Below, piece by piece: positions 5,349-20,791 of a DNA stretch of 20,791 bases. Made by a program: the position numbers and the translations under genes. Each line of letters starts with the position of its first letter. The stretch's first letter is position 1. A model generated the notes under the pieces. The model saw only the letters and a list, made by a program, of their open reading frames with translations, did not search any database and was not told the origin of the DNA. This stretch comes from a virus (Duplodnaviria; Heunggongvirae; Uroviricota; Caudoviricetes): IMG/VR virus record IMGVR_UViG_2563366825_000026, positions 1 to 20,791 of that record; one strand, 5' to 3'.

Positions 5349-5696
5349 GTCCATAAGAAAGCCCCTCCGGAGAGGGGCTGGAGAGTGGCGCTATGTGCCA
5401 TTGCATGGTGCCGGGTGCCTCCCGGTGAGTTCAGTATCAGCACCTGAACCCGCACAGAAAGGATAAGGGTCGGTGACAAAACACCAGTTGCTGATTGCCC
5501 CTCCGCACAGGGGGATTCACCATGCCAGTTTCTTTTAACAAACTCCCCGCAAACCAGACAACAGTCAACCGCCTGAATTGTGAGGTATTTAAAAATTTCA
5601 ACGGGTAACTGATACCCTGCTAATCGCCTGATGCTTTCTTTTTCAGCAACGGGGAAGCAACAACCACCACACCCACCAGCCGCCCATTTACCACAA

Positions 5697-6023: not shown

Positions 6024-6112
6024 ATAAAAAACCCGCCAGGCGGCGGGTTTAAGTTGTGTGGCGTAGTAACCACTCTTAACATACTGACATACTTTTTGCG
6101 GACCGCGCTAAT
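6024..6112 (-). promoter_or_regulatory. late-promoter region: putative PR'-like promoter and qut region followed by a tR'-like intrinsic terminator
   Basis: Just downstream of the Q-like stop on the minus strand: stem CCCGCC/GGCGGG (6032-6047) followed by UUUUUUAU. About 35-60 nt upstream lie an A-rich tract and weak sigma70-like hexamers (TGATTA - 17 - TATGTC). Geometry matches the lambda PR'/6S RNA/tR' arrangement; the exact hexamers are uncertain. Confidence 0.5.
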
Positions 6113-6500
6113 CATTTTTTACTTTTTTGGGCAGCCAGTCGTCCATCTCCAGCCTTACACCCAGCATCGACAGACATCCGTCAATAAATCCTTCAGCAAT
6201 CTGCATCTCAATTCGTATTGCCTTTTCGCTCTTCTTTCTTGTTCTGGCAATCTGCCTTTTTGATATGCGCAGCAGATAATGAGCTACCAGCAGCGAATAC
6301 TCGTCCGGTTTTTTCTTCTTCAGGCGCGTAAGGCAGTTTTCGATGATAAGGCCGTCATCATCGCTGCAGGCCGGGCGAGGTTTAGCGGTGGATGGTAAAA
6401 GGCCTTTAAATCCAGCAGCTATCGGAGAATAGTCCACCCCGGTGTTACCACTTGCCGCCCATGCCCCCCAGCGTTCAAGAACCATCTGAATATCACGCAT
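6108..6500 (-). CDS. Q: late-gene antitermination protein Q-like (short Q family, about 130 aa)
   Basis: ATG at 6500 with GGAGA 6 nt upstream (the track ORF starts at a TTG at 6515). Position is diagnostic: last gene before the tR'-like terminator and the late genes, directly after the nin-region genes. Family identity is from memory of short Q proteins and is unverified. Confidence 0.6.
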   Translation of the reverse strand: MRDIQMVLERWGAWAASGNTGVDYSPIAAGFKGLLPSTAKPRPACSDDDGLIIENCLTRLKKKKPDEYSLLVAHYLLRISKRQIARTRKKSEKAIRIEMQIAEGFIDGCLSMLGVRLEMDDWLPKKVKND

Positions 6501-6517
6501 CAACTTTCTCCACAAAA

Positions 6518-8888: not shown

Positions 8889-9211
8889 ACTTTCAGGCCC
8901 CTCTCATGTAACCAGTGGGCTGCACGCAGCCTGGCGTTTGCCTCACCGGCAAGCAGGGCGCGGATAATCCCGACCGCCTCGCTGTCGTCGTCCTTCACCG
9001 CGGTATGAAGAGTGATACCCCGGGCCACGCCACGCTTTATCGTGATGACACCTTTTTTCTCCAGTGCGCGAAGATGCTCCACCGCTGCATTCACCGAACG
9101 GTATCCCAGCATGGTTGCCACCTCCTGATTGGTTGGCGGGAAGCCACGTTCTTTCTGATAAGAAATCAGCATATCCAGCACCTGCTGCTGGCATTGAGTT
9201 AATGTCGTCAT
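8885..9211 (-). CDS. LexA-like winged-helix DNA-binding protein (LexA N-terminal domain only, no S24 peptidase domain)
   Basis: 108 aa; LTQCQQQVLDMLISYQKERGFPPTNQEVATMLGYRSVNAAVEHLRALEKKGVI resembles the N-terminal domain of LexA (LTARQQEVFDLI...[34 protein letters not shown]). Translationally coupled to the genes on both sides. Confidence 0.7.
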   Translation of the reverse strand: MTTLTQCQQQVLDMLISYQKERGFPPTNQEVATMLGYRSVNAAVEHLRALEKKGVITIKRGVARGITLHTAVKDDDSEAVGIIRALLAGEANARLRAAHWLHERGLKV

Positions 9212-9861
9212 GCCGCCATCTCCCTGACCAGTTTTTCCGCCTGCTGGCGAACCTGCGCCAGAAATGCCTCACCACATGCCTCAAGTTCATCGCGCCCGAT
9301 GTAGCTGATTGCCGCTCCCTTCCAGGTCTTGTCGAAAACAGCAATAGCACCAGCGAAGAAAGCACCTGTTGGCACCTGCTTTTCGTCTTTCGGGATAAAC
9401 CAGGCTGGCAGTTCAAAACCAATACGCCCGCGAATAAAAGCAATATGATCTGCATCTTCCGGCCACCACACTTCGCTGGTGGCCGCTTTGATCAGGAAAA
9501 CATAGCGCCCGCCTTTATCACGCATGGCACTGGCATGCTTCATGATGTAACGCATGCCGGTGATGTATTGTCCCTCATGCTGACTGGCGCGGCTGTACGG
9601 GGGATTACCAAAGGCAGCACCTTTAAGCTCCGCAAGACGTTCTGACCAGTCATGTGCCAGCGCGTTGTCTTCCGCCGTGTAATACGCGGCACATTTGGCG
9701 TTATCACCGTCAGTAAACAGATCCAGAACAAACGGGCCAAACAGGGTGTTAATTCCCCAGAAAATGTTGTCCGGCGTGCGCCACTGATCGCCCACTTCCT
9801 TCAGTTCATGGGCTGGTTTGTTCCGTAGTTCCACCAGCGCCTGGCAATATTTATTACTCAT
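9208..9861 (-). CDS. phage DNA N6-adenine methyltransferase (Dam-like)
   Basis: ATG at 9861 overlaps the upstream stop (TAATG). FGNPPYS is an NPPY catalytic motif of N6-adenine methyltransferases. Position in the nin region is typical; corresponds to yfdM of CPS-53 by synteny. Confidence 0.8.
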   Translation of the reverse strand: MSNKYCQALVELRNKPAHELKEVGDQWRTPDNIFWGINTLFGPFVLDLFTDGDNAKCAAYYTAEDNALAHDWSERLAELKGAAFGNPPYSRASQHEGQYITGMRYIMKHASAMRDKGGRYVFLIKAATSEVWWPEDADHIAFIRGRIGFELPAWFIPKDEKQVPTGAFFAGAIAVFDKTWKGAAISYIGRDELEACGEAFLAQVRQQAEKLVREMAA

Positions 9862-10355
9862 TAAGCCCCCACGTAATTCCCTGACAGATACCACTCATCA
9901 CCCGCTACAGCGCGCTTTCTGCTTTTCCGTAAGCACCGCTCACGACGCGCCAGAAAATTGTTTCGTTCTGGCTGGGAGTGGCTTTCACGGAATGCCGCCA
10001 TCCACACGGTTGCAGCACGACGGTATAAGCCCCTGGACTCCAGTTCTTCCGCCTGGCGGGTCAGGCACAAAATCACCCGGGGATCGTTAGTGCCGACATA
10101 GAAATTGCGCACAGGTATGGTTTCAAGAACAGGTTGCAGTTTCTCCTCCTGCGATATCTCAGCCTGGTGTGGGAAATGTCTGCGTGTTTTCCCTTCACAA
10201 CAGTGAGCCACACGGCCACTCTGACGTAACTTGCTTGCTGACTGCAGAACGCACTGTCGTGAGTAACCAGCAAAAGCATCCGCAATGTCACCTGAAGTAC
10301 ACCCCGGATGGGCTTCAATGAATTTCTGTACATCGTTCATCAGACTCATGATCAC
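9861..10355 (-). CDS. hypothetical protein (164 aa), possible PerC-like regulator; yfdN-like by synteny and length
   Basis: Start overlaps the O-like stop (ATGA). Contains an HTH-like segment and an ELESRGLYRRAATVWMAAF block reminiscent of PerC-family proteins. Assignment from memory only. Confidence 0.5.
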   Translation of the reverse strand: MIMSLMNDVQKFIEAHPGCTSGDIADAFAGYSRQCVLQSASKLRQSGRVAHCCEGKTRRHFPHQAEISQEEKLQPVLETIPVRNFYVGTNDPRVILCLTRQAEELESRGLYRRAATVWMAAFRESHSQPERNNFLARRERCLRKSRKRAVAGDEWYLSGNYVGA

Positions 10356-11170
10356 CCCCTGAATCCTGTCGGGATCTGGCTGTAGTCCACGTTGTCGTAA
10401 CTGGCTTTGAAGTACGGGTCCTCGCGTCTGGCTGCAGATACCGCAGGAACTTCCCAGGATTCTTCGAAATGACGATCCGGACCAAAGAACGTGACAGCCT
10501 GTTTCACAAATTGTGTGCCGCTATTGCCCATCGCAGATACCCAGCCCGCGTAGCGTTTCACACCTTCCAGCATGGTTTCGGGGTTTACCCCCTCATTCAA
10601 ACGGGCTTTCCAGGCTTTGAAGGCTGCAGATTTTGAATTGCCACCAGCACGTTTGGGATAGGCCAGCCATGCCTGCTCAAACTCCGGAGAGTATTCCGGT
10701 CGGTTTGAACGAACTCGCACAGACTCATCAGCAGATGCACCAACAGCTATTGGTTCATTGACTGGTTCTTTGACTGGTTCAAAAGAGTGACTGGTTCTGG
10801 GTGAATCTCCTGCACTACCCCCTGGTGCAACTCCTGCACTACCTGGTGAATTTGCTGCACCAGATAGTGAATTATTTGCACTACCCCCTAGTGAATCTCC
10901 TGCACCATCAAGATGAAGGAGATAGATATTACTTGAGTTACCTTTTTCACCTTTCCGGGTGACTTTTTTTACCAGCCCGGACTCACAAAGGGCCGCAATA
11001 TGATTCATCACAGAACGTTTGCTAATCTCGCACTGGTCAGCAATATGCTGGTAGCTGGGCCAGCACTCACCCTGATCGCTGGCATTATCAGCCAGCTTAA
11101 TCAGAACCAGTTTTCGCAATGGATTTCCCACTCGAATTTTCATCGCTTTAACCATCAACTCCATACTCAT
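10352..11170 (-). CDS. replication initiator, lambda O-like (N-terminal HTH domain, low-complexity linker encoded by the iterons, C-terminal domain)
   Basis: 272 aa. N-terminal NPLRKLVLIKLADNASDQGECWPSYQHIADQCEISKRSVMNHIAALCESGLVKK is a replication-initiator-type HTH. The Gly/Ser/Ala-rich linker is encoded by tandem direct repeats, as with ori-lambda inside O. Corresponds to the defective yfdO of CPS-53 by synteny. Confidence 0.6.
   Translation of the reverse strand: MSMELMVKAMKIRVGNPLRKLVLIKLADNASDQGECWPSYQHIADQCEISKRSVMNHIAALCESGLVKKVTRKGEKGNSSNIYLLHLDGAGDSLGGSANNSLSGAANSPGSAGVAPGGSAGDSPRTSHSFEPVKEPVNEPIAVGASADESVRVRSNRPEYSPEFEQAWLAYPKRAGGNSKSAAFKAWKARLNEGVNPETMLEGVKRYAGWVSAMGNSGTQFVKQAVTFFGPDRHFEESWEVPAVSAARREDPYFKASYDNVDYSQIPTGFRG
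10755..10920. repeat. putative origin of replication: iteron-like direct repeats inside the O-like gene
   Basis: Three copies of TGACTGGTTC (10759-10768, 10771-10780, 10788-10797), then about five 21-25-bp repeats of the form GTGAA(T)-CTCCTGCAC(T/C)ACC between 10801 and 10915, next to an AT-richer stretch. Confidence 0.5.
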
Positions 11171-11391
11171 GCAGCACCTCCGAGATGCTTCATGTTTTTT
11201 CCGGAGCGAAAGGCTATAAGCGGCATACTGACGCGGTAATTACGGCCCAGCGGTTCACAAATCACCTTCTGACATTCACGGTCAACCAGGCTAACACGTA
11301 GAACATGCCCTGCAGGCGTGGTGTACCACTGACCCGGACGAGGACAACGGAAAGTATGATTGGTAAACCGTTTGAAAATATTCCGGATCAT
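11167..11391 (-). CDS. hypothetical protein (74 aa)
   Basis: ATG overlaps the Rha-protein stop (ATGA) and its stop overlaps the O-like start (ATGA), so it is translationally coupled on both sides. No family recognised. Confidence 0.4.
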   Translation of the reverse strand: MIRNIFKRFTNHTFRCPRPGQWYTTPAGHVLRVSLVDRECQKVICEPLGRNYRVSMPLIAFRSGKNMKHLGGAA

Positions 11392-12539
11392 TTGCGCCCC
11401 CTTACCTCTGAAGGGTTCAGCGACAAATTTATGAGACTGGCCAGTAGCGCCGCGTCGTTGATGCGGTCATACAGACTTACAGCCAGCGGGGATTCGGCTT
11501 TTGCCAACATGGGATAAAGCTGCTGCAGCCAGACCTGATGAATTGATGAAATGTAGGAATAGAGAACGCTGGCGTTATATGCAACGTCGCTCAGTACAGA
11601 GGGATTTGAAAGCTGTTTCTCCATCTGGTTAAAGGCATTGATGTATGCCTCTTTGAACCGGGCAGCACGTTTACCCGTGAAGCCCATGGCAAGAAACGCA
11701 AAACCGTCGCGGGTGATTTGGTAACAAGGGAGTTTGCGGCCTGATGCGTCGGTGTATTCACTTAACACAAAATTGTGTTCAGTAAATTCAGCGGAACATT
11801 CGAGGTTTCTAATTCTATCTAAAACCCGCTCATGCCGTTTAGTAAAGTAATTAGCTACTGCAAGAGATGTGGTGACAACGCGACCATTGATAATCGTGAT
11901 TTCAGGGTGAGATTGGGTTGGGAGAGTAGTCATGGTGACAGCCCCTATGTTGAATTCAATGAACTCACCACCAAGGCTTTCCACGACCATATAGGTGGTG
12001 AGACGTACAGGGGTGGAAATACCGGTCAACATAGAACCCGGCCCAACCGAAGTTGGCCCTGCACGCCCCACCATAATTTGGGCGTAACGATGCTCATGAC
12101 ACGAAAAAACCGCATGAGCGCGGTTGTGCTCTATATTGAATTTCGGGTTTCCACGCCCGGCACCCGCTTTATAAGGTGCCTGAACAGTGTAACGTCCCGG
12201 AATTGCAGAATCAATATGCTGGTGGTCCTTCACACTCAACAAAATCACGCCTGAATTTCCACAAAGGACTAAAGCACTCATGCGGGTAGTCTTTGCGAAG
12301 ATAGATAACGCGCTGTGTTTCTGGCTCCCAACGAATAACATGGACATAAAGCCCTCTTCCGTCACGAAACCAGCGGTTAAGTTCCTGCACAACTCGCCCC
12401 CCACAGTCAGGTAAAGTTCTCTGTGGTTACTTACAGCCAGGTGATTTGGTAATCTGCATTCATGCCGTAACAACAGGTGTTCAGCGACGCTGACCACCAG
12501 CTGTTGCGACAAACGGTTATTTGCCGTTAAACTATTCAT
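11388..12539 (-). CDS. Rha-domain phage regulatory protein with an N-terminal extension of about 200 aa of unknown function
   Basis: Residues from about 203 (MTTLPTQSHPEITIINGRVVTTSLAVANYFTKRHERVLDRIRNLECSAEF...DGFAFLAMGFTGKRAARFKEAYINAFNQME) match the Rha domain, which is usually N-terminal. An internal ATG at 11933 with an AGGGG SD could give a 181-aa Rha-only product. The 12539 ATG overlaps the upstream stop (ATGA), supporting the long form. Confidence 0.6.
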   Translation of the reverse strand: MNSLTANNRLSQQLVVSVAEHLLLRHECRLPNHLAVSNHRELYLTVGGELCRNLTAGFVTEEGFMSMLFVGSQKHSALSIFAKTTRMSALVLCGNSGVILLSVKDHQHIDSAIPGRYTVQAPYKAGAGRGNPKFNIEHNRAHAVFSCHEHRYAQIMVGRAGPTSVGPGSMLTGISTPVRLTTYMVVESLGGEFIEFNIGAVTMTTLPTQSHPEITIINGRVVTTSLAVANYFTKRHERVLDRIRNLECSAEFTEHNFVLSEYTDASGRKLPCYQITRDGFAFLAMGFTGKRAARFKEAYINAFNQMEKQLSNPSVLSDVAYNASVLYSYISSIHQVWLQQLYPMLAKAESPLAVSLYDRINDAALLASLINLSLNPSEVRGRK

Positions 12540-13105
12540 GCGTTAGTTTCTCCACAACCAGAAGCAATCGACGCCACGACGCCCGGAGCTGCACACTCGC
12601 GGGCGTTACTATTTTCTGGAGCGCAGAAGATTTTGTAGACCAGTGCTGCATGCTCCTGGAGCTTCGAAATTGAGAGGTACAGCTCGTCGTTAATTGCTGT
12701 CTTCTCATGCGGTTCCACTACACCGTCTTCGATTGCTGAACGAATCTGTCTGGAATAACTGCCGATCTGTTCAATGACTTCCAGCAGACGCTGGTTAATA
12801 TCGGCGTTGTCCACATCCTCGACGTCAGGAAGAGACACAAAGACGCCATTTGCAGACTGCGCCACAGCGTCAGCAATGAAGTGAGTTCCACCAGCACGTT
12901 GTAAAATCATTGCCCATCCCAGCGGGAAAATCTGATCGCCATCGGCACGAAGGCGATTGAATAAAGCGTTCTCTGTTACATCCAGCCACTCAGCAGCTTC
13001 AGCGTAACCCCCCGGCAACGCCGCGATAGTTTTTCTGACAGCTTTCACGTACCACTCAGGCTGTTTTTCTACTTTCCAGTGATGCTTACCCACGGTTAGC
13101 CTCAT
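12536..13105 (-). CDS. early regulatory protein at the cII position (possibly YdaT-family)
   Basis: 189 aa, immediately downstream of the cro-like gene; protein-like composition. YdaT-family assignment rests on synteny with YdaS-like Cro, not on recognised motifs. Confidence 0.45.
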   Translation of the reverse strand: MRLTVGKHHWKVEKQPEWYVKAVRKTIAALPGGYAEAAEWLDVTENALFNRLRADGDQIFPLGWAMILQRAGGTHFIADAVAQSANGVFVSLPDVEDVDNADINQRLLEVIEQIGSYSRQIRSAIEDGVVEPHEKTAINDELYLSISKLQEHAALVYKIFCAPENSNARECAAPGVVASIASGCGETNA

Positions 13106-13136
13106 CGTTCTGTGGTTAAAAATTGAAGGTGTTCTG

Positions 13137-13337
13137 TTAATCTTTCGGATAGATATCCGGTCTTAAGTCAGATTTCGTAATTGCACCTGACGTGCATTGC
13201 TCAAGTTTTTTAGCCAGCACAAAACTGGCTTTTTTATAACCATTGAAAACCAGCCGTAAGTAGCCTGGTGTTGAGCCAACTTTTCCGGCCAACTCGCCCT
13301 GCTGTTCTTTGGTTAAAGAGTCCCAATACGCTTTCAT
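13137..13337 (-). CDS. cro: Cro-like repressor (YdaS/Cro family HTH)
   Basis: ATG at 13337 with GGAGGT upstream; 66 aa. The GSTPGYLRLVFNGYKKASFVLAKKLEQCTSGAITKSDLRPDIY block resembles Cro/YdaS-type HTH proteins. Divergent from the cI-like repressor across an operator region. Confidence 0.7.
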   Translation of the reverse strand: MKAYWDSLTKEQQGELAGKVGSTPGYLRLVFNGYKKASFVLAKKLEQCTSGAITKSDLRPDIYPKD

Positions 13338-13427
13338 ACAATATGTACCTCCGATATACATATTACATGATTGAGATGAACCTTCAAGATACTTGTACCC
13401 TATCGGTACAAAGGTTTTAATTTCGTT
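13338..13427. promoter_or_regulatory. divergent PR/PRM-like promoter region with two 19-bp palindromic operators
   Basis: ATGTACCTCCGATATACAT (13343-13361) and TTGTACCCTATCGGTACAA (13393-13411), both with TGTAC-type half-sites. Minus-strand candidate PR: TTGAAG - 16 - TAATAT. The cI ATG lies 17 nt after the second operator, suggesting a very short or leaderless PRM transcript. Confidence 0.5.
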
Positions 13428-14102
13428 ATGAAAACAGTCCATGACATCCGGCGGTCTAACGCCAGAAAACTGAGAGATGGTGTTGGCGGGAATTCTTCCT
13501 TTGCCACCATGATTGATCGCGAGCCAACCCAGACCAGCAGGTTTATGGGAGATGGTGCTACTAAAAATATCGGTGACAGCATGGCACGGCACATCGAAAA
13601 ATGTTTCGACCTGCCTGTCGGATGGCTTGATCAAGAACACCAGACAACAAACATCACAAAAAAACCTGATGTTTCAATTACTAACAAACAAATAACGTTA
13701 GTCCCTGTCATATCATGGGTACAGGCCGGAGCATGGAAAGAAGTTGGCTATTCTGAGGTTGATTTGAGCACAGCAGAAACTTATCCCTGCCCTGTACCCT
13801 GTGGCGAAATGACTTATATCTTGCGGGTGATTGGTGATTCAATGATTGATGAGTACCGCCCGGGAGACATGATTTTTGTAGATCCTGAAGTCCCTGCCTG
13901 CCACGGTGACGACGTTATTGCATTGATGCACGATACAGGCGAAACCACCTTTAAGCGGTTGATAGAAGATGGAACACAGCGTTACCTCAAAGCATTAAAC
14001 CCAAACTGGCCTGAACCTTACATTAAGATCAACGGTAATTGCTCTATAATTGGCACAGTAATTTTCTCAGGAAAACCAAGAAGATACAAAATAAAGGCCT
14101 AA
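13428..14102 (+). CDS. cI: CI-like prophage repressor with N-terminal HTH and C-terminal LexA-like S24 peptidase (autocleavage) domain
   Basis: 224 aa. XRE-like HTH (SFATMIDREPTQTSRFMG) and C-terminal VIGDSMIDEY...TFKRL Ser/Lys dyad typical of LexA/cI-type self-cleaving repressors. Followed by a strong terminator. Confidence 0.85.
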   Translation: MKTVHDIRRSNARKLRDGVGGNSSFATMIDREPTQTSRFMGDGATKNIGDSMARHIEKCFDLPVGWLDQEHQTTNITKKPDVSITNKQITLVPVISWVQAGAWKEVGYSEVDLSTAETYPCPVPCGEMTYILRVIGDSMIDEYRPGDMIFVDPEVPACHGDDVIALMHDTGETTFKRLIEDGTQRYLKALNPNWPEPYIKINGNCSIIGTVIFSGKPRRYKIKA

Positions 14103-14113
14103 TCAATATTTAT

Positions 14114-14137
14114 AACCTGCTTCGGCAGGTTTTTTTA
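14114..14137 (+). terminator. intrinsic terminator after the repressor gene
   Basis: Stem AACCTGC (14114-14120), loop TTCG, stem GCAGGTT (14125-14131), then a T-run (14131-14137). Confidence 0.7.
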
Positions 14138-14140
14138 TAC

Positions 14141-14169
14141 TTGACAATGTACCCTTGAGATACATAATG
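14141..14169 (+). promoter_or_regulatory. PL-like early-left promoter with overlapping operator
   Basis: TTGACA (14141-14146) - 16 nt - CATAAT (14163-14168). The spacer carries ATGTACCCTTGAGATACAT (14147-14165), the same ATGTAC-N7-TACAT palindrome type as the operators next to cro. Confidence 0.6.
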
Positions 14170-14582
14170 TATCTAAAAGAAACATGTCACAGGCAAGATT
14201 AAACAAAATTTGGTTGTAACACGGCGTATGGCACATGCGTCGTTAGCGGTCTGGGGACGTTAAAGGGGACAATCCACTCCTTGCTCGGGCAAACAAACCA
14301 GGTAGCCGGAATGTGCAAGTCAATGAGGATGCTGATAAGACGCCTAACCAGCGTGGCGATTCGGTTTGACGCCTGGGAAGAGACCAGGACGCAACGATGA
14401 GAGCATTTATGGAGCCGCGACAAAGTGTGGTGCCGTAACTGGCTAAGTGCTCTCAGCGTTGTGGTGAATGCGCAGGCTGATGCGCGAAAGACATTGCAGC
14501 TATTGCGGAAAAGAGCTGTTCGGCGGGGCAATTAAACGCCCGTGAGAGTCTGAAATAACCGCAAGCCGGAGATCAGCACCGG

Positions 14583-14651
14583 TCACCACAACAGCCACTG
14601 CTTTGGCGGTACCAGTTTGTACACTTGCTTCCGGCTGGTACCGCTCTTTTT
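14583..14651 (+). ncRNA. candidate DicF-like small RNA 3' element / intrinsic terminator at the end of an ORF-free PL leader
   Basis: Perfect 10-bp stem GCGGTACCAG (14606-14615) / CTGGTACCGC (14635-14644), 19-nt loop, then TCTTTTT. The 5' arm with flank (GGTCAC...TTTGGCGGTACCAGTTTGTAC) resembles my memory of E. coli DicF (GGTGACGTTTGGCGGTATCAGTTTTAC). Identity unverified. Confidence 0.35.
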
Positions 14652-14652
14652 A

Positions 14653-14739
14653 CAAAACAGAGAAGAGCATCACCGGACGACGGGCTCATAACCCAATCCA
14701 TCCGGGCGGCTGCCACCGCAGGTGTTCTTCTCTGTTTTG
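14653..14739. repeat. 14-bp perfect inverted repeat flanking a 59-bp GC-rich core
   Basis: CAAAACAGAGAAGA (14653-14666) and its exact reverse complement TCTTCTCTGTTTTG (14726-14739); inner hairpin CCGGA...TCCGG. Lies between the terminator and the first early-left gene. Confidence 0.55.
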
Positions 14740-14788
14740 TGGAGAAACCAACCGACCTTGCAGGGTCGATATGATGAGGAGCAGCAAA

Positions 14789-15151
14789 ATGGCTAGCGTA
14801 CGCAGTACTGATGTGCAGGTATTTATCGTAGAACTGGACGGCGGCGTATTTGAAACCAAACTCGGCGCAGTTCTCAGTGAAGTCGCTTCCGGTGTGATGA
14901 ACACGAAAAACAAAGGTAAAGTCTCGGTCAATCTGGACATCGAACCGTTTGATGAGAACCGTGTGAAAATCAAACACAAACTCTCATATGTTCGCCCGAC
15001 TAACCGCGGGAAAATTTCCGAAGAAGACACCACCGAAACGCCGATGTATGTCAATCGAGGTGGTCGCCTGACTATTCTGCAGGAAGACCAGGGACAATTA
15101 CTAACTCTTGCCGGTGAACCTGACGGAAAACTCCGCGCAGCAGGTCATTAA
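14789..15151 (+). CDS. hypothetical early-left protein (120 aa); yfdP-like by position and length
   Basis: ATG at 14789 with GAGGAG 7 nt upstream; MASVRSTDVQVFIVELDGGVFETKLGAVLSEV... First gene after the PL leader. The track's longer version (from 14603) runs through the hairpin region. Confidence 0.6.
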   Translation: MASVRSTDVQVFIVELDGGVFETKLGAVLSEVASGVMNTKNKGKVSVNLDIEPFDENRVKIKHKLSYVRPTNRGKISEEDTTETPMYVNRGGRLTILQEDQGQLLTLAGEPDGKLRAAGH

Positions 15152-15216
15152 TATCGTTCTTAATTAACTGATTATTTATCTCATCACTGAATATCTTAAT
15201 ATAGTGAGGACTTATT

Positions 15217-16041
15217 ATGTCTCAGAACTTAGACGCAACCGCAATTAATCAAATCCATGCCCTTATTTCTGCTCAGGGTGTTAATGAAATTATCAGTAAG
15301 ATTGGTGCCGATGCTGTGGCATTGCCTGAGAATTTCCGCATTCATGATCTGGAAAAATTTAATTTAAATCGCTTCCGTTTCCGTGGTGCGCTTTCCACTG
15401 CCAGCATCGATGACTTTACCCGTTATTCTAAAGATCTTGCAGATGAAGGCACCCGCTGCTTTATCGATGCCGATAATATGCGTGCCGTCAGTGTGCTTAA
15501 CCTGGGTACTATTGGTGAACCAGGTCACGCAGATAACACCGCCACACTCAAACTGAAAAAGACAGCACCGTTCTCTGCTCTGTTGTCTGTTAACGGCGAG
15601 CGTAACTCCCAGAAGTCACTGGCAGAATGGATTGAAGACTGGGCCGACTATCTTGTGGGCTTTGATGCTAATGGTGACGCTATTAAGGCAACAAAAGCGG
15701 CTGCGGCAGTCCGTAAAATCACGATTGAAGCAAACCAGACCGCTGATTTTGAAGATAATGACTTCAGCGGCAAACGCTCTTTGATGGAGTCTGTCGAAGC
15801 GAAGACCAAAGACATTATGCCAGTGGTATTTGAATTTAAATGCGTTCCGTTTGAAGGCCTGAAAGAACGTCCGTTTAAATTACGCCTCAGCATTATCACT
15901 GGCGATCGTCCTGTACTGGTTCTGCGCATTATTCAGCTGGAAGCAGTGCAGGAAGAAATGGCTAACGAATTTCGTGATCTGCTTGTTGAGAAATTTAAAG
16001 ACAGCAAAGTAGAAACCTTTATTGGTACTTTCACCGCCTGA
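15217..16041 (+). CDS. yfdQ: YfdQ-like protein (DUF2303 family), 274 aa
   Basis: Length (274 aa) and position immediately upstream of an HD-domain YfdR-like gene match the CPS-53/KpLE1 yfdQ-yfdR-yfdS block as I remember it. GTGAGGA SD. Family assignment from memory and synteny. Confidence 0.6.
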
Positions 16042-16053
16042 TTTCATTACTGC

Positions 16054-16075
16054 AAATGCCCCTGCGGGGGCATTT
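16054..16075. terminator. weak hairpin after the yfdQ-like gene
   Basis: 9-bp stem AAATGCCCC / GGGGCATTT with TGCG loop; only a short U-tract, so termination efficiency is doubtful. Confidence 0.3.
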
Positions 16076-16169
16076 ATGGAAACATAATTGACTCAATAAT
16101 CGCCTGATGGCGAGGGTTTTCTTTAACCAAAATTCAGCGCGGTGCAGCGCATATAAAGTGGAGAACAAA

Positions 16170-16706
16170 ATGTCATTTATTAAAACTTTTTCCGGGAAGC
16201 ATTTTTATTATGACAGGATAAATAAAGACGACATCGTGATTAACGATATCGCGGTTTCCCTTTCAAATATCTGTCGCTTTGCAGGACATCTTTCACACTT
16301 CTACAGCGTCGCCCAACATGCGGTGCTTTGCAGCCAGCTGGTACCGCAGGAATTTGCTTTTGAAGCGTTAATGCATGATGCAACAGAAGCGTATTGCCAG
16401 GACATCCCAGCTCCACTGAAACGCCTTCTTCCTGACTATAAACGGATGGAAGAAAAAATAGACGCCGTAATCCGTGAGAAATACGGGTTACCTCCTGTTA
16501 TGAGCACGCCTGTGAAATATGCCGATCTCATTATGCTGGCAACCGAACGTCGCGATCTCGGGCTTGATGATGGCTCTTTCTGGCCTGTACTGGAAGGTAT
16601 CCCGGCGACAGAGATGTTCAAAGTTATTCCACTGTCACCAGGCCATGCCTACGGGATGTTTATGGAACGTTTTAACGAGTTATCGGAGTTACGCAAATGC
16701 GCATGA
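16170..16706 (+). CDS. yfdR: HD-domain phosphohydrolase, YfdR-like 5'-deoxynucleotidase
   Basis: ATG at 16170 with GTGGAGAA SD gives 178 aa, the same length as E. coli YfdR. The LMHDATEAY block is an HD-domain His-Asp signature; further His/Asp residues downstream. Confidence 0.7.
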   Translation: MSFIKTFSGKHFYYDRINKDDIVINDIAVSLSNICRFAGHLSHFYSVAQHAVLCSQLVPQEFAFEALMHDATEAYCQDIPAPLKRLLPDYKRMEEKIDAVIREKYGLPPVMSTPVKYADLIMLATERRDLGLDDGSFWPVLEGIPATEMFKVIPLSPGHAYGMFMERFNELSELRKCA

Positions 16707-17059
16707 ATGTTTTCGAAATGGAAGGGTTTCTTCGCGGGAAATGTGTACCACGAGATCTGAAAGTGAATGAAACAAATGCTGAGTACCTGGTACGTAAATT
16801 CGATGCGCTTGAAGCTAAATGTGCGGCACTGGAAAACAAAATAATACCAGTGTCAGCTGAACTGCCGCCAGCAAATGAAAGTGTTCTGTTATTTGATGCT
16901 AACGGAGAAGGCTGGCTAATTGGCTGGCGTTCTCTCTGGTACACCTGGGGACAAAAAGAAACCGGAGAATGGCAGTGGACATTTCAGGTCGGGGACCTTG
17001 AAAACGTCAATATCACTCACTGGGCAGTAATGCCGAAAGCACCGAAGAATAAAAAATGA
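16697..17059 (+). CDS. yfdS: YfdS-like protein (DUF551 family), 120 aa
   Basis: Overlaps the YfdR-like stop; 120 aa matches YfdS length. WLIGWRSLWYTWGQ is a Trp-rich block I associate with DUF551. From memory and synteny. Confidence 0.55.
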   Translation: MRMNVFEMEGFLRGKCVPRDLKVNETNAEYLVRKFDALEAKCAALENKIIPVSAELPPANESVLLFDANGEGWLIGWRSLWYTWGQKETGEWQWTFQVGDLENVNITHWAVMPKAPKNKK

Positions 17060-17259
17060 GCGTGATAAAAACTCATACAGGAATTGTTATCACCCGAGAC
17101 GGTCCGCAGGTAAAAAAACTGCACCAGACAAAGCGGATGTGGGTCGTCGGAAAAAACGAGTTTTACCACAAAGAAACCGGACGCCGCCACTTTGCAGAAA
17201 ATACTCGCCGCCGACTGCTGATCGATACCATCAAGCCTATCGAGGTGAAGCATGTTTAA
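17056..17259 (+). CDS. hypothetical protein (67 aa)
   Basis: ATG overlaps the upstream stop (ATGA); basic small protein. No family recognised. Confidence 0.45.
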   Translation: MSVIKTHTGIVITRDGPQVKKLHQTKRMWVVGKNEFYHKETGRRHFAENTRRRLLIDTIKPIEVKHV

Positions 17260-17491
17260 ACAGAACGAAAAATCTATCGCTCAAATTGCTGAGTATATCC
17301 CGCGTGCGTGCCGGGATATGCAGTTGCAGGAAGCCAAAGCACGCCTGGAGAAAAAAATTGCGCTCTATATCGATGACGGCTGTGATGCCGCCGTTCTTAA
17401 CGCGGCGTTCGCGCCAGCTCTTAACAGTCATACGCGAAAGTCTTTTTTTTCGTGCATCGCAGCGCAGATCCGTAAAGGAGGCAACCAGTGA
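17252..17491 (+). CDS. hypothetical protein (79 aa)
   Basis: ATG at 17252 with GAGGTG SD; 8-nt overlap with the upstream gene. Confidence 0.45.
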   Translation: MFKQNEKSIAQIAEYIPRACRDMQLQEAKARLEKKIALYIDDGCDAAVLNAAFAPALNSHTRKSFFSCIAAQIRKGGNQ

Positions 17492-18270
17492 GCAACATTA
17501 ACTATCAGGTACTGCGTGAAAAGGCAGAGAAAGCAACTAAAGGAAGCTACATCGTAGGGCATACATCTGTTAACCAGCATGGCAATTTAACAGGAGTTTT
17601 TGTTTGTCAAAAATGGAAAGGAGAACCCGGTGGCGTGATTGCCGAATGTCATGTTAACTGCCTGATTGAATCAGATGCTCAGGCTTATGCAAACGCTGAA
17701 TTTATAGCAGATGCTAACCCAGCTACCGTACTGGCGCTACTGGATGAACGGGAAAGAAACCAGCAATACATCAAACGCCGCGACCAGGAGAACGAGGATA
17801 TTGCGCTTACGGTTGGGAAGCTGAGAGTTGAGCTTGAGGAGACAAAATCAAAACTCAACGAGCAGCGTGAGTATTACGAAGGTGTTATCTCGGATGGGAG
17901 TAAGCGTATTGCTGAACTGGAGAAAATCGCCACTGACTATGCACTGAAATTTCAGAAAGCCCAGGACGCATTAAAGTACGCTGTTTTGCTGCGCAAATCA
18001 GGGCAGGAAGCACGGGAAATAAAACCAGCCAAAGGCGAAGTTCTTGTCGTTGTATCTGGTTTTACTGGTTGCGGAAAAAGCGCCATCGCCGGGGAAATAG
18101 AAATCGCGATGAAGTCTATTGGTGTACCGGTTAAGTGGACTAATGGCGATGCGGAAAAGCGCATGACAGGAGCTGACTGGCTGACAGCGATTGAGATGTA
18201 CAAACCAACAGTGCGCATCGTGGAAGTTAATGTGCCACGCGCTGCTGGCATTCGCATCAAAGGAGAGTGA
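17488..18270 (+). CDS. Ead/Ea22-like early-left protein (260 aa) with central coiled coil
   Basis: GTG start with strong AAGGAGG SD 6 nt upstream, overlapping the upstream stop (GTGA). Central charged coiled-coil region. C-terminal GFTGCGKS is a Walker-A-like string. Ea22-like call is from memory of typical early-left genes. Confidence 0.5.
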   Translation: MSNINYQVLREKAEKATKGSYIVGHTSVNQHGNLTGVFVCQKWKGEPGGVIAECHVNCLIESDAQAYANAEFIADANPATVLALLDERERNQQYIKRRDQENEDIALTVGKLRVELEETKSKLNEQREYYEGVISDGSKRIAELEKIATDYALKFQKAQDALKYAVLLRKSGQEAREIKPAKGEVLVVVSGFTGCGKSAIAGEIEIAMKSIGVPVKWTNGDAEKRMTGADWLTAIEMYKPTVRIVEVNVPRAAGIRIKGE

Positions 18271-18271
18271 G

Positions 18272-18700
18272 ATGACCACTATTACCAATAAGAAACAGTA
18301 TCCCAGCGAGCAATATCTTAATGAGCTGATCACCAACATAGAGTTTGCTGCAAGGGCACCAGTTGAAGTCGTGAGAGCAATGGCAGCAGAGCTACAGAAG
18401 CGGCGCGAAGCTGATAGTGCAGAACCTGTAAGCCAAACTTACAGGTTGCCACAAACGCAGTTTGAACAGGTTGCTGACCTCTACGAAATGCAATTTGATG
18501 ACGGACGCACTTGCGCCTTTCACACTGATGCACAAAAGGCTGCGCAATGGCTTCAGGCATGCGACGGAAACAGGGTTCAGGAATACGTGAAACTGGAGCG
18601 ACTGCAGAACGCGCTATCGGACAACTATCCGGTAACTCCGGATGGTTGGATAAGCTGTAGTGATCGAATGCCGGACGACAGGCAGGAGGTGAATCAATGA
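18272..18700 (+). CDS. hypothetical phage protein (142 aa)
   Basis: ATG at 18272 with AAGGAGAG SD. The C-terminal DGWISCSDRMPDD resembles the start of DUF551-type domains. No confident family. Confidence 0.5.
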   Translation: MTTITNKKQYPSEQYLNELITNIEFAARAPVEVVRAMAAELQKRREADSAEPVSQTYRLPQTQFEQVADLYEMQFDDGRTCAFHTDAQKAAQWLQACDGNRVQEYVKLERLQNALSDNYPVTPDGWISCSDRMPDDRQEVNQ

Positions 18701-18780
18701 GCTGGCCTGATGCAATCGTAACTCTGGGGGTGGTATTCGCAGCAGCGTTTGTTGTGTTCTCGATTTGTCGATGGGGATAA
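18697..18780 (+). CDS. 27-aa hydrophobic peptide (single predicted TM helix)
   Basis: ATG at 18697 overlaps the upstream stop (ATGA), with GGAGGTG 5 nt upstream. MSWPDAIVTLGVVFAAAFVVFSICRWG. Below the 60-aa cutoff of the ORF track. Confidence 0.4.
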   Translation: MSWPDAIVTLGVVFAAAFVVFSICRWG

Positions 18781-18784
18781 CCAC

Positions 18785-19027
18785 ATGTTCGCTTTGATTC
18801 AACGCGGTCAGATATACACGGACAGAGCTGGATACCCCGTGGTGATTACTCGCATCACTGAGCACTCAGTGTTCTTTCGACGGATGGATGGGCGAACACA
18901 GTCAGTAAAAATAAACGATTTCAATGAACTGTTTGAACGGATTGATCACCAGGAATACCGACAAATTCTGGCAGAAACAGAGCAGGAAGCTCATCTGAAA
19001 AAATTACGGGCCATGAAAAGGAAGTAA
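18785..19027 (+). CDS. hypothetical protein (80 aa), DUF4222-like
   Basis: ATG at 18785; MFALIQRGQIYTDRAGYPVVITRITEHSVFFRRMDGRTQSVKINDFNELFE. Family assignment from memory, unverified. Confidence 0.45.
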   Translation: MFALIQRGQIYTDRAGYPVVITRITEHSVFFRRMDGRTQSVKINDFNELFERIDHQEYRQILAETEQEAHLKKLRAMKRK

Positions 19028-19030
19028 ACA

Positions 19031-19177
19031 ATGAATAAAGCATTTGAACAATGGGTCCACCAGCGTTACGGCAATCGCTATGACCTGACACGAGATGTTG
19101 ACGGTTTCTACTGTCGTGAAATTGTGAAACGAATGTTTGAAGTGTGGTGCCACTGCCGTGGGCTGAGTGTTGTGTGA
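19031..19177 (+). CDS. hypothetical small protein (48 aa)
   Basis: ATG at 19031 with AAGGAAG SD; MNKAFEQWVHQRYGNRYDLTRDVDGFYCREIVKRMFEVWCHCRGLSVV. Not in the ORF track because it is under 60 aa. Confidence 0.4.
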   Translation: MNKAFEQWVHQRYGNRYDLTRDVDGFYCREIVKRMFEVWCHCRGLSVV

Positions 19178-19185
19178 GGTAATGC

Positions 19186-19422
19186 ATGGGCAATGTGATT
19201 CAACTGGCTCCCAATGAATGGGTTTGTGAAAGCGTTCTAATCGCAATTACCGGGCTCAAACCAGGCACAATTCTTCGGGCCCGGAAAGAATGCTGGATGG
19301 TTGGAAGAGAGTATATTCACTTATCACCAGACGGTAATCCAAAGCCTTCCAGTGAATGTATGTATAACAGAAAAGCAATAGATGCCTGGGTCGCTTCAAT
19401 GAAAAACAAACAACCTGGGTGA
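19186..19422 (+). CDS. xis: excisionase-like protein (Xis, DUF1233-type)
   Basis: 78 aa, immediately upstream of the integrase; GAGGT SD. The ITGLKPGTILRARKECWMVGREYIHLSPDG block is typical of lambdoid excisionase-like proteins. Confidence 0.7.
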   Translation: MGNVIQLAPNEWVCESVLIAITGLKPGTILRARKECWMVGREYIHLSPDGNPKPSSECMYNRKAIDAWVASMKNKQPG

Positions 19423-19477
19423 TTTAATGCCATGAAGTATGTAAGCTCGTATCGCTCTTGGGCGTCTGGAGGTATCA

Positions 19478-20791
19478 ATGGATAAAGTCAAATATCCAAC
19501 AGGCGTCGAAAACCACGGCGGCACATTACGCATCTGGTTTAATTTTAAAGGTAAACGTGTCAGGGAAAATCTTGGTGTCCCTGACACTGCCAAGAACAGG
19601 AAGATCGCCGGGGAACTGCGGACATCGGTATGTTTTGCCATCCGCACAGGAAGCTTTGATTATGCTGCACAGTTCCCTGACTCCCCCAACCTTCAGGCTT
19701 TTGGGGTAAGTAAAAAAGAAATTACGGTGAAGGAACTTGAAGAAAAGTGGCTGGATCTGAAACGAATGGAAATCTCTGCAAATGCATTCAATCGCTATGA
19801 ATCCGTTGCAAGAACGATGGTTTCGAAAATTGGAGGCAGTAGACTGGTGTCATCGGTAACCAAAGAGGAATTGCTGTATATCAGGAAAGATTTGCTAACC
19901 GGGTATCAGAATTCAACGAAAAACAAAGCAGCAGCAAAAGGACGGAGCGTCGTTACTGTAAATTATTACATGACGACAATCGCTGGAATGTTTCAGTTTG
20001 CTGCAGATCACGGTTACTTAGAAGCAAATCCCTTCCAGGGAATTAAGCCTCTTAAAAGAGCCAGGGCAGAGCCAGATCCGCTAACTCGTGACGAATTTAT
20101 TCGCCTGATAGATGCTTGCCGACATCAGCAGACGAAAAACCTGTGGTCATTGGCTGTGTACACAGGAATGCGTCACGGTGAACTGGTCTCCCTGGCCTGG
20201 GAAGATATCGATCTGAAGGCAGGAACAATTACCATCAGGCGCAATTATACGAAACTTGGTGAGTTCACTCTACCGAAAACTGAAGCAAGCACAAACAGGG
20301 TTGTGCACCTTATCCAGCCCGCTATCAGTGTCCTGAAAAATCAGGCTGAAATGACAAGACTGGGTAAGCAGTACAACATCAAGGTGCAACTACGTGAATA
20401 TGGACGTTCAGTGAACCATGAATGTACTTTCGTGTTTAACCCTCAAGTGGTTAGAAAAAGCGAACAGGTAGGTTTTGTCTACAAAGTCGATTCTGTAGGT
20501 GACTCATGGGAAACAGCCATTAAGCGTGCAGGGATCAGGCATCGAAAGGCATACCAGTCACGACACACTTATGCGTGCTGGTCATTATCTGCCGGAGCAA
20601 ACCCAAGCTTCATTGCCAGCCAGATGGGCCATGCAAGTGCCCAGATGGTATTCAATGTATACGGAGCATGGATGACTGACAGCAATGCAGAACAGATCGC
20701 AATGCTGAATCAGAAGCTGACAGATTATGTCCCAATGATGCCCCATAGTCACCAAAGTGACACCAGAGGCTTATTAAAATCAGTAAGTTAA
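19478..20791 (+). CDS. int: tyrosine site-specific integrase (lambda Int family)
   Basis: 437 aa with TGGAGGT SD. Catalytic-domain signatures (R...HxxR...Y: RHGELVSLAWEDID, SRHTYACWSL, MVFNVYGAWM). The stop codon is the last three bases of the window. Confidence 0.9.
   Translation: MDKVKYPTGVENHGGTLRIWFNFKGKRVRENLGVPDTAKNRKIAGELRTSVCFAIRTGSFDYAAQFPDSPNLQAFGVSKKEITVKELEEKWLDLKRMEISANAFNRYESVARTMVSKIGGSRLVSSVTKEELLYIRKDLLTGYQNSTKNKAAAKGRSVVTVNYYMTTIAGMFQFAADHGYLEANPFQGIKPLKRARAEPDPLTRDEFIRLIDACRHQQTKNLWSLAVYTGMRHGELVSLAWEDIDLKAGTITIRRNYTKLGEFTLPKTEASTNRVVHLIQPAISVLKNQAEMTRLGKQYNIKVQLREYGRSVNHECTFVFNPQVVRKSEQVGFVYKVDSVGDSWETAIKRAGIRHRKAYQSRHTYACWSLSAGANPSFIASQMGHASAQMVFNVYGAWMTDSNAEQIAMLNQKLTDYVPMMPHSHQSDTRGLLKSVS

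Follow-up and report, generated by a model that had tools for sequence, protein, structure and literature searches.

Four genes at 14789-17059 (+) of a 20,791-nt stretch of viral DNA (the window) are the yfdP-yfdQ-yfdR-yfdS block of E. coli lambda-like prophages. They form an early-left operon block of two modules whose function is most likely takeover of host replication and not metabolism. We give this reading, including read-through of the leader, a probability of about 0.6. The block is already known from the K-12 cryptic prophage CPS-53/KpLE1 and is well known from E. coli lambda-like prophages, so its recognition is correct but ordinary. It adds little by itself, being one more copy of a very common module, and the best-studied member, K-12 yfdQRST, is already linked to DnaA. 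Less expected is a structured RNA, widespread and unannotated, that lies directly upstream of yfdPQRS and is joined to the virulence-linked sRNA-17.

Identity of the yfdPQRS block

The sequence-only reading had described four open reading frames of 120, 274, 178, and 120 aa in an early-left location. All were found in that order and at those lengths on the + strand, and the location was borne out. The block and the genes that follow it are:

14789..15151, +, yfdP, 120 aa; Pfam PF27127 by precomputed annotation
15217..16041, +, yfdQ, 274 aa; DUF2303
16170..16706, +, yfdR, 178 aa; HD-domain protein
16697..17059, +, yfdS, 120 aa; DUF551-like; start overlaps the yfdR stop
17056..18270, +, downstream operon genes for 67-aa and 79-aa proteins, then an Ead/Ea22-like protein (260 aa); unlike K-12 yfdT

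The likeness to the K-12 block, which that reading drew from gene lengths and order, was confirmed by BLASTP against MG1655. Identical residues number 112/120 for YfdP (93%), 269/274 for YfdQ (98%), 174/178 for YfdR (98%), and 116/117 for YfdS (99%). Synteny was confirmed by a single collinear blastn alignment of window 14770-17047 with NC_000913 2473585-2475861 (96.5% over 2278 bp), so that homology begins 19 bp ahead of the yfdP ATG and ends shortly before the stop codon of yfdS.

A GAGGAG ribosome-binding site was read upstream of the yfdP ATG. The AF2 model of YfdP has a pLDDT of 67, and a fold search returned no match. YfdQ scores above the gathering threshold of Pfam DUF2303 (PF10065; 303.6 vs 26.6 bits, residues 7-272, E=1.4e-90). 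Its AF2 model (pLDDT 78) has no whole-fold match, and a homologue has been solved as a 36-chain assembly (PDB 9o7m, 'YfdQ Protein'). YfdP-YfdQ fusion proteins exist, which implies that the two proteins act together. The program-made list of open reading frames starts yfdR at ATG 16107 (199 aa); a GGAG ribosome-binding site precedes ATG 16170. YfdR is assigned to PHROG 318 and has a PDB homologue, 2gz4. YfdS matches PHROG 583 over its full length and scores 21.8 bits against DUF551 (PF04448; cut-off 22) over C-terminal residues 50-117. Stops and starts overlap at yfdR/yfdS and at yfdS/next gene.

Operon layout and leader RNA

The block belongs to the leftward early operon of a prophage that is lambda-like, mosaic, and of the mEp460 / SfIV type. 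A cI-like repressor gene is followed by a terminator, a strong pL-like promoter, an untranslated leader of ~610 nt, yfdPQ, two terminator-like hairpins, and yfdRS; small genes, the ea22-like gene, xis, and int lie 3′ of yfdRS. Upstream features and signals are:

13428..14102, +, cI-like repressor, LexA/S24 family, 224 aa (Pfam Peptidase_S24, E=1.5e-26); directly upstream of the operon
14114..14131, +, predicted terminator hairpin and T-run ending the cI transcript (consensus scan, AACCTGCTTCGGCAGGTT + TTTTTATACT); annotated in Ayreon
14141..14168, +, predicted pL-like early-left promoter, TTGACA-16-CATAAT (11/12 consensus positions); overlaps an operator-like palindrome
14209..14466, +, conserved, structured noncoding RNA of ~250 nt within the leader; carries no annotation and has no Rfam match
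14458..14650, +, sRNA-17, 193 nt, a published sRNA of mEp460-like prophages (Song et al. 2020, PMC7719688)
14605..14651, +, intrinsic-terminator-like hairpin, GGCGGTACCAG...CTGGTACCGC then TCTTTTT (sequence, MFE fold)
14645..14745, +, long hairpin of ~25 bp, nearly perfect, in the distal part of the leader (fold)
16054..16113, +, pair of terminator-like hairpins between yfdQ and yfdR (16054-16075, a terminator by Ayreon annotation, and 16100-16113); z=-3.7

Annotations of homologous prophages and of phage Ayreon label the cI-like gene LexA family or repressor. The sequence at 14141-14168 is the best promoter match in 13000-19600 by consensus scan, is also marked as a promoter by the Ayreon annotators, and is the putative promoter of the yfdPQRS operon. 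Promoter and terminators are consensus or fold predictions, the one mapped signal being the 3′ end of sRNA-17.

The two modules, yfdPQ and yfdRS, are exchangeable and mosaic, with their boundary in the 16054..16113 spacer. A prophage in NZ_CM129862 that is collinear in other respects has retained the leader and yfdRS, but its yfdPQ position is taken by rdgC. With rdgC as an alternative cargo there, yfdPQ and yfdRS are shown to be separable.

The prophage encodes neither an N protein nor a helicase loader and has one HTH_36/DnaD_N (O/DnaD-like) initiator. Pfam and PHROG searches of the eight early-left proteins (14789-18700) gave no match to a Rec module (SSAP, Exo, Gam, Abc), and the window holds 16 Chi sites vs 0.69 expected. 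A phage class that is N-less, Rec-less, and loader-less has been described (PMC12315714). The window matches it in its lack of Rec hits, its many Chi sites, and its single initiator.

The leader RNA at 14209-14466 is well supported as a real structure. Its consensus has 47 pairs in at least 8 helices, and 18 pairs show compensatory changes. Cells in the alignment are paired at 95%, vs 31-43% in slid controls, and 0/500 shuffles reach the observed values. Conservation has sharp edges. An exact 18-mer of the element occurs in at least 120 viral contigs, and the element is present in 1640/5426 E. coli genomes. No annotated feature underlies it among the 25 full-length matches listed. In other phages, including P1-like and epsilon15-like ones, it is flanked by tRNA-Ile2(CAT) or tRNA-Arg(TCT).

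Rfam 15 covariance models returned nothing relevant over 14050-14850 at E<=10. The element was rejected as a tRNA, DicF, STnc100, or other Rfam family, ARAGORN and Rfam both being empty. An STnc100 is present elsewhere in the window and is unrelated to the element. Three leader reading frames (39 aa at 14281-14400, 110 aa on the minus strand, and a 182-aa TTG extension of yfdP) were dropped because substitutions lack 3-nt codon periodicity (0.249/0.255/0.249) and the helices covary, and the leader holds no credible open reading frame.

The 3′ part of the leader is sRNA-17, a RACE-mapped, virulence-linked RNA whose source strain is RS218 (Song et al. 2020, PMC7719688). Its span of 14458-14650 in the window rests on the UTI89 row of the supplementary alignment, in which the readable 96 nt equal 14555-14650 exactly and the 5′ 20-mer starts at 14458. 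The adjoining upstream element of ~250 nt is not described in that paper. The hairpin at 14605-14651 coincides with the RACE-mapped 3′ end. The fold of 14460-14800 reaches -136.6 kcal/mol (z=-4.9), and 0/100 shuffles are as good. The hairpin at 14645-14745 may serve as an RNase III site of the kind found in the lambda N leader.

We tentatively propose, at odds we regard as less than even by some way, that this undescribed RNA is a mobile noncoding module, antiterminator or processing platform, that governs yfdPQRS and the whole early-left operon of the N-less class. The module would then be common to P1-like, epsilon15-like, and Klebsiella phages, where genes for tRNA-Ile2 or tRNA-Arg would abut it. 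As a protein-independent processive antiterminator, it would be analogous to HK022 put but unrelated to it. As a processing platform, it would free a downstream cargo RNA, sRNA-17 here and tRNA-Arg elsewhere. Such a leader could answer how N-less lambdoid phages pass their early terminators.

Proposed role in takeover of host replication

Takeover is the best-supported role because K-12 YfdR binds DnaA, multiple copies of yfdQ and yfdR with yfdS or yfdT block oriC initiation, and the nucleotidase activity is weak. K-12 YfdR binds DnaA directly, Phe46 is important, and both DiaA-DnaA and DnaB-DnaA binding are inhibited (Noguchi & Katayama 2016, PMC4776307). The minimal multicopy set is yfdQ + yfdR + (yfdS or yfdT), with yfdP dispensable, and a YfdQRST extract inhibits oriC replication in vitro (PMC4776307). 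Only multicopy or overproduced genes gave the DnaA effect, deletion of yfdQRST gives no replication phenotype in K-12, and purified YfdR alone inhibits DiaA and DnaB binding only moderately (PMC4776307). These K-12 experiments concern proteins 98-99% identical to those of the window, from which we infer that YfdR of the window phage would bind DnaA domain I and, with YfdQ and YfdS/T, inhibit oriC. The window lacks yfdT, and no recognisable fold or motif in YfdP or YfdQ accounts for what they do.

Upon loss of repression, the operon would deliver YfdR, an HD-domain protein, which would bind DnaA domain I at the Phe46 surface used by DiaA and DnaB. Together with YfdQ and YfdS, it would suppress initiation at oriC; its weak dNMP phosphohydrolase activity is probably secondary. 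With the DnaA-DnaB contact blocked, host DnaB may be freed for the phage origin, an idea prompted by the single O/DnaD-like initiator of a phage class that has no helicase or loader. With terminator-like hairpins in the leader and in the yfdQ-yfdR spacer and no N gene, the block is probably expressed only if RNA-based read-through or processing takes place in the leader. A functional-looking operon in an N-less, Rec-less, loader-less class offers a testable case for YfdR, YfdQ, and YfdS in phage replication takeover.

It is unlikely that the block, especially yfdPQ, is instead a non-canonical DNA recombination, repair, or RecA-modulating module replacing exo/bet/gam. The block occupies the early-left operon, where lambda and P22 keep Rec genes, in a phage without a recognisable Rec module. 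The gene that takes the place of yfdPQ in the sibling prophage encodes a DNA-binding RecA modulator, RdgC. Strains deleted for yfdQ are reported to be sensitised to MMS and H2O2, and those without yfdS to H2O2 (PMC4776307); the 36-chain YfdQ homologue would suit a ring or filament former. The AF2 models of YfdQ and YfdP show no Rec-type fold.

The sequence-only reading had favoured YfdR as a nucleotide-pool modifier with anti-defence relevance, and this found no support. In this alternative, YfdR would be mainly a 5′-deoxynucleotidase that reshapes the dNMP/dNTP pool, either in favour of the phage or against nucleotide-based defence or competing phages. By direct reading, its HD motif is intact (AQH at His50, MHD at His69-Asp70, and downstream Asp residues), and all four differences from K-12 YfdR fall outside it. 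RefSeq and PHROGs label YfdR a deoxynucleotidase, YfbR-like and HD_3 Pfam models match weakly, and dNMP activity of the K-12 protein has been reported (Zimmerman 2008, as cited in PMC4776307). However, YfdR falls below the gathering score of PF12917 (24.3 vs 25.9) and far below the equivalog cut-off of NF003009 (19.9 vs 122), and PADLOC defence models match none of YfdP, YfdQ, YfdR, and YfdS. K-12 YfdR has low nucleotide affinity and is a weak 5′-deoxynucleotidase (PMC4776307), the literature points to DnaA instead, and a simple nucleotidase fails to explain the genetic need for YfdQ and YfdS/T with YfdR. YfdR shares an HD-domain phosphohydrolase fold family with E. coli YfbR (PF12917, NF003009), which it matches only partially and below threshold (residues 41-104); DnaA binding, shown by the K-12 orthologue of YfdR, is not known for YfbR. 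We consider a mainly nucleotidase role quite improbable.

Least probable, and in our view very much so, is that yfdPQRS are lysogen-benefit 'moron' or exclusion genes that are on in the prophage state and give stress tolerance or superinfection exclusion. Deletion of CPS-53 or of yfdQ or yfdS singly alters H2O2 and acid tolerance in K-12 (PMC4776307), but these phenotypes are mild. The slot just downstream of cI is a rexAB-type position, in which RdgC has been proposed to be RexA-like, and the block is kept in the decayed K-12 prophage and is common among E. coli genomes. Against this, cI is directly followed by a terminator, and the promoter ahead of the leader looks repressor-controlled, so yfdPQRS should be silent in the lysogen; further terminator-like hairpins lie ahead of yfdP.

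Comparison with known systems

Gene order, strand, spacing, and overlaps are the same in CPS-53/KpLE1 yfdP-yfdQ-yfdR-yfdS (b2359-b2362) as in the window. The block is common to both, by sequence; the prophage itself is not. K-12 lacks the DNA from mid-yfdO to 19 bp upstream of yfdP, which in the window holds the immunity region, promoter, leader RNA, and sRNA-17. The absence of the immunity region from K-12 had been predicted correctly; the window has cI, cro, and a cII-like YmfL. Genes like yfdO, yfdN, and yfdM had been placed across this region. This holds for yfdN (87%) and for yfdM, which is full length here (a 217-aa Dam-type methyltransferase) and 100% identical over the 89 aa kept in K-12, whereas yfdO matches K-12 in its last 33 aa only (79%). 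On the 3′ side, the yfdT-ypdJ-torI genes of K-12 give way in the window to other small genes, an ea22-like gene, and a different xis and int. By blastn, no homology to K-12 CPS-53 extends beyond 17047. The window integrase, a 437-aa protein, differs from that of CPS-53, and the yfdT-torI-intS side is unmatched.

The yfdPQRS block was found in 3172/5426 complete E. coli genomes (58%) and in viable phages, namely mEp460, cdtI, Ayreon, Stx2c phages, and SfII/SfIV. None of the complete E. coli genomes has an intact copy of the whole window, the best match covering 88% at 97.8%. In SfII / SfIV (and SfV orf29-31), mEp460, cdtI, and Ayreon, all of them intact lambda-like phages, this early-left block likewise follows a cI-like repressor; isolated phages such as mEp460, cdtI, and Ayreon had already documented the intact context. 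The mEp460 leader is 99% identical to that of the window, whereas in SfIV the structured leader RNA is missing, as is most of sRNA-17. Mosaicism between these phages and the window affects the replication initiator, the Rha/ant region, and the late regions.

The suggestion that the window shows the intact ancestor of CPS-53 was partly right. The complete immunity region with yfdN and yfdM across it stood; the ancestry did not: among intact relatives, SfII/SfIV are closest to CPS-53, and the window is a mosaic relative. K-12 yfdO and the iteron-bearing DNA upstream of it are 99% identical to the O gene of Shigella phages SfII/SfIV, not to the window initiator. SfIV has the intact layout Q..PerC(yfdN)-O..cro-cI..yfdP-DUF2303-yfdR-yfdS.

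The structured leader RNA resembles HK022 putL in position: in a lambdoid phage that lacks N, it separates the early-left promoter from the first terminator. In the window, the promoter (14141-14168), element (14209-14466), and terminator (14605-14651) are in a put-like order, and a put-like mechanism has been guessed for the N-less phage class (PMC12315714). HK022 put is ~70 nt with two hairpins, whereas the leader element is much larger, at ~250 nt. Homology to put was rejected, blastn giving no significant similarity to the HK022 nun-pL-cI-cro region, and a motif search of the window found no second copy of the element as a putR analogue.

The proposed role of YfdR is like that of lambda P, in that a phage early protein contacts the host initiator/helicase system and inhibits oriC initiation (PMC4776307, discussion). 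Lambda P binds DnaB and DnaA domain III, whereas the target of YfdR is DnaA domain I, and YfdR depends in vivo on YfdQ and YfdS/T. The two proteins share no sequence relationship.

The yfdPQRS block and its relation to CPS-53

The block consists of four forward genes:

14789–15151, +, yfdP, ORF of 120 aa
15217–16041, +, yfdQ, ORF of 274 aa
16170–16706, +, yfdR, ORF of 178 aa
16697–17059, +, yfdS, ORF of 120 aa

The yfdR start was placed at ATG 16170, which follows a GGAG ribosome-binding site; the mechanical ORF list begins at an upstream ATG (16107). The sequence-only reading had likened these gene lengths and their order to the cryptic CPS-53 block of E. coli K-12, and the comparison bears this out. 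Protein identities to K-12 MG1655 (NC_000913.3) are 93% for YfdP, 98% for YfdQ, 98% for YfdR, and 99% for YfdS; low identity despite matching lengths was not seen. Synteny also holds, as the K-12 block and window 14770–17047 form a single collinear 2,278-bp DNA alignment at 96.5%. Given this alignment, the coordinates first proposed for the block (14789–17059) are almost exactly the limits of the shared mosaic segment, a match that cannot be chance.

The block region (2.8-kb query) was matched in 3,172 of 5,426 complete E. coli genomes, mostly at 95–99% identity, where RefSeq names the products YfdP, YfdQ family, yfdR 5′-deoxynucleotidase, and YfdS. Isolated phages mEp460, cdtI, Ayreon, 1720a-02, phiSTEC1575-Stx2k, and many Stx2c phages carry it, as do Shigella phages SfII and SfIV. 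The intact prophage context that had been proposed is thus present in the window but already on record. The finding was correct and well located, and the block is an already known, very common prophage module.

Genes like yfdN, yfdM, and yfdO had been placed across the immunity region. This stands for yfdN (87%) and yfdM (100% over 89 aa), whereas the yfdO-like gene shares only the last 33 aa of K-12 YfdO. The yfdM-like gene (9208–9861, −) encodes a full-length 217-aa Dam-type N6-adenine methyltransferase; in K-12, YfdM is cut down to an N-terminal fragment of 91 aa. At 9380–9520 of L002, the K-12 locus with CPS-53, direct repeats that resemble iterons (GATTTTGACGGGTCA and variants) are found just upstream of yfdO as annotated. 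K-12 yfdO and this upstream DNA match the SfII and SfIV O gene at 99% identity, and SfIV has the complete layout Q..PerC–O..cro–cI..yfdP–DUF2303–yfdR–yfdS. The K-12 repeats lie within an O gene of SfII/SfIV type that has been truncated; they are its origin repeats and mark a deletion's left end. From these matches and the full SfIV layout, the deletion fuses the middle of that O gene to DNA beginning 19 bp upstream of yfdP. It is the Sf phages that are the real intact relatives of CPS-53, in keeping with its gtr genes and argW site. The suggestion that the window shows the intact ancestor arrangement was not upheld; its layout is equivalent only, and the K-12 O gene belongs with SfII/SfIV.

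Prophage context in the window

Minus-strand genes encode an endolysin, SASA esterase, Q antiterminator, DUF968/HNH protein, KilA-N protein, RusA, LexA-like protein, the yfdM-like methyltransferase, a PerC-like (yfdN-like) protein, an HTH_36/DnaD_N-type initiator, a 74-aa ORF, a Rha-family gene, cII-like YmfL, and a Cro-like protein. The forward strand carries a cI-like S24 repressor (13428–14102), a leader, yfdPQRS, two small genes, an Ead/Ea22-like gene, and more small genes, one of them excisionase-like. It closes with a complete integrase of 437 aa whose end coincides with the final base of the window. Among the window proteins scanned there was no helicase, no helicase loader, no N homologue, and no recombination module. 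The replication module is compact:

10352–11391, −, one HTH_36/DnaD_N-type initiator and the 74-aa ORF

Sixteen Chi sites (GCTGGTGG) occur in the window (0.69 expected), 13 on the minus strand and 15 at or before 12895. Such an excess is a signature of lambdoid phages that have no recombination module of their own and depend on RecBCD. The best match in any complete E. coli genome covers 88% of the window at 97.8%; because none contains all of it, the window is one more mosaic of familiar modules.

A full-length STnc100 sRNA (143 bits) lies at 5349–5554 (−), between the Q (6108–6515) and SASA esterase (3143–5125) genes on the same strand. The 383-aa "Rha" ORF (11388–12539), annotated at this length by RefSeq in related prophages, holds Rfam gathering-level matches to C4 antisense RNA (11991–12078) and isrK (12103–12179), both on the minus strand. 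Probably just the distal ~190 codons form the real Rha gene, with an isrK/C4 RNA region resembling P1 immI ahead of them.

Leader RNA and sRNA-17

The block itself is of low interest; the leader RNA upstream merits separate follow-up. The leader falls outside the coordinates first proposed for the block but belongs to its operon. The layout is:

14102, +, end of cI
14114–14131, +, terminator hairpin after cI
14141–14168, +, predicted promoter TTGACA-16-CATAAT, the region's best sigma-70 match, overlapped by an operator-like palindrome
14209–14466, +, conserved element of ~250 nt with sharp bounds, within the leader

No credible ORF was found in the ~610 nt between promoter and yfdP. The element was found in 1,640 of 5,426 E. 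coli genomes, and an exact 18-mer of it in at least 120 IMG/VR contigs. It also occurs in P1 (between trnI and ban), epsilon15-like phages PAS61 and Tyrion, and Klebsiella phage SopranoGao; it is absent from SfIV and K-12, and the window has no second copy. None of the 25 full-length E. coli matches listed has an annotated feature beneath it, and Rfam 15 gave no match even at E≤10.

Substitutions lack 3-nt periodicity, and the plus strand folds far better than the minus. The consensus structure (15-sequence alignment) has 47 pairs in 8 helices, with 18 pairs changed on both sides. Paired cells reach 95%, versus 31–43% with slid partners, and the observed values were reached in 0 of 500 shuffles. 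Compensatory changes surround a YUMACCA loop (ACGC/GCGU, AGGA/UCCU, GGGA/UCCC) and a GAAGAGA loop (CCUGG/CCAGG, CCUCG/CGAGG, GCCGG/CCGGC), and a long stem accepts inserts of widely differing length. tRNA-Ile2(CAT) ends at the 5′ edge in 28 of 126 loci and tRNA-Arg(TCT) begins at the 3′ edge in 26. Downstream, yfdP follows at the same distance in about half of the viral loci with the element; in the rest it does not.

In the window, the 3′ slot taken by tRNA-Arg in other phages is filled by sRNA-17 (14458–14650, +), a 193-nt, RACE-mapped, ArcA-modulated RNA of mEp460-like prophages of E. coli K1 that is linked to blood survival (Song et al. 2020, PMC7719688). Its mapped 5′ end lies at the 3′ edge of the structured element and its 3′ end is an intrinsic-terminator-like hairpin (14605–14651). 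The ends pair as a 7–10-bp closing stem (GUUGUGGUGA / UCACCACAAC), which suggests that sRNA-17 arises by processing of the pL leader. Parts of sRNA-17 also turn up in the late leader of HK620 and in Klebsiella phage Magnus. A GTTA-N13-GTTA direct repeat inside the element (14242–14262) is a candidate ArcA site, by the pattern that Song et al. 2020 (PMC7719688) screened for. Past the terminator, the distal leader (folding z=−4.9) has a ~25-bp hairpin (14645–14745) and a small one ahead of the yfdP ribosome-binding site.

Two roles fit the element. "Put RNA-mediated" antitermination has been guessed for this phage class (PMC12315714), and a put-like antiterminator may fit here by analogy, as the element lies between the early promoter and first terminator of an N-less phage; the HK022 put region shows no similarity to it. 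A processing platform or stable RNA of its own also fits, given the tRNA-gene association and the sRNA-17 junction.

Operon modularity, proteins, and function

A prophage of strain SW070917 (NZ_CM129862) is collinear apart from rdgC (305 aa), which stands in for yfdP and yfdQ (16725–17642 in that locus versus window 14789–16041; left junction near window 14751). The upstream leader RNA and sRNA-17 are kept, as are yfdR, yfdS, and the next genes downstream. Two terminator-like hairpins lie in the yfdQ–yfdR spacer:

16054–16075, annotated as a terminator in Ayreon
16100–16113, second hairpin

A few genomes encode YfdP–YfdQ fusions. Since rdgC replaces yfdPQ alone and these fusions exist, yfdPQ is one unit and yfdRS and onward another. 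A cryptic recombination or RecA-modulating module is a weaker reading of the block than the replication role discussed below.

YfdQ belongs to DUF2303 and has a PDB homologue (9o7m, "YfdQ Protein," E=3e-44) whose 36 chains imply a large assembly; a literature search found no publication on it. The YfdQ AF2 model (pLDDT 78) gave no whole-fold match, and 9o7m was absent from its fold-search matches. YfdP (precomputed Pfam PF27127) was modelled poorly (pLDDT 67) and its fold search gave no match; its C-terminal 30 residues are highly conserved yet modelled as disordered. YfdS is DUF551-like at a score just below threshold.

YfdR had been put forward as a nucleotide-pool modifier relevant to anti-defence. 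Its HD motif is intact and its nearest solved relative is Atu1052 (2gz4), but matches to YfbR-type models are all sub-threshold, none of the four block proteins matches a PADLOC defence model, and the K-12 orthologue's nucleotide affinities fall far below YfbR's (PMC4776307). This reading found no support and is the weaker one; the published DnaA link is a better lead.

Direct experiments exist only for the K-12 orthologues (Noguchi & Katayama 2016, PMC4776307). Multicopy yfdQ and yfdR with yfdS or yfdT suppress over-initiation in hda-185, dnaAcos-type, and seqA mutants and inhibit initiation in wild type; yfdP is dispensable. YfdR alone binds DnaA, with Phe46 of DnaA domain I important, and moderately inhibits DiaA–DnaA and DnaB–DnaA binding. 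In vitro, YfdQRST extract inhibits replication from oriC. Deleting the K-12 genes causes no replication phenotype. A lysogen-benefit gene set is also a weaker reading.

At 98–99% identity, we infer that these activities would hold for the window proteins. With the block in an early operon under promoter control, in a phage lacking a helicase loader, takeover of host replication is the most economical reading. As a speculative further step, blocked DnaA–DnaB contact might make DnaB available to the phage origin. Noguchi & Katayama (2016) proposed that the activity they saw with the K-12 genes might have benefited the ancestral phage, as lambda P does (PMC4776307).
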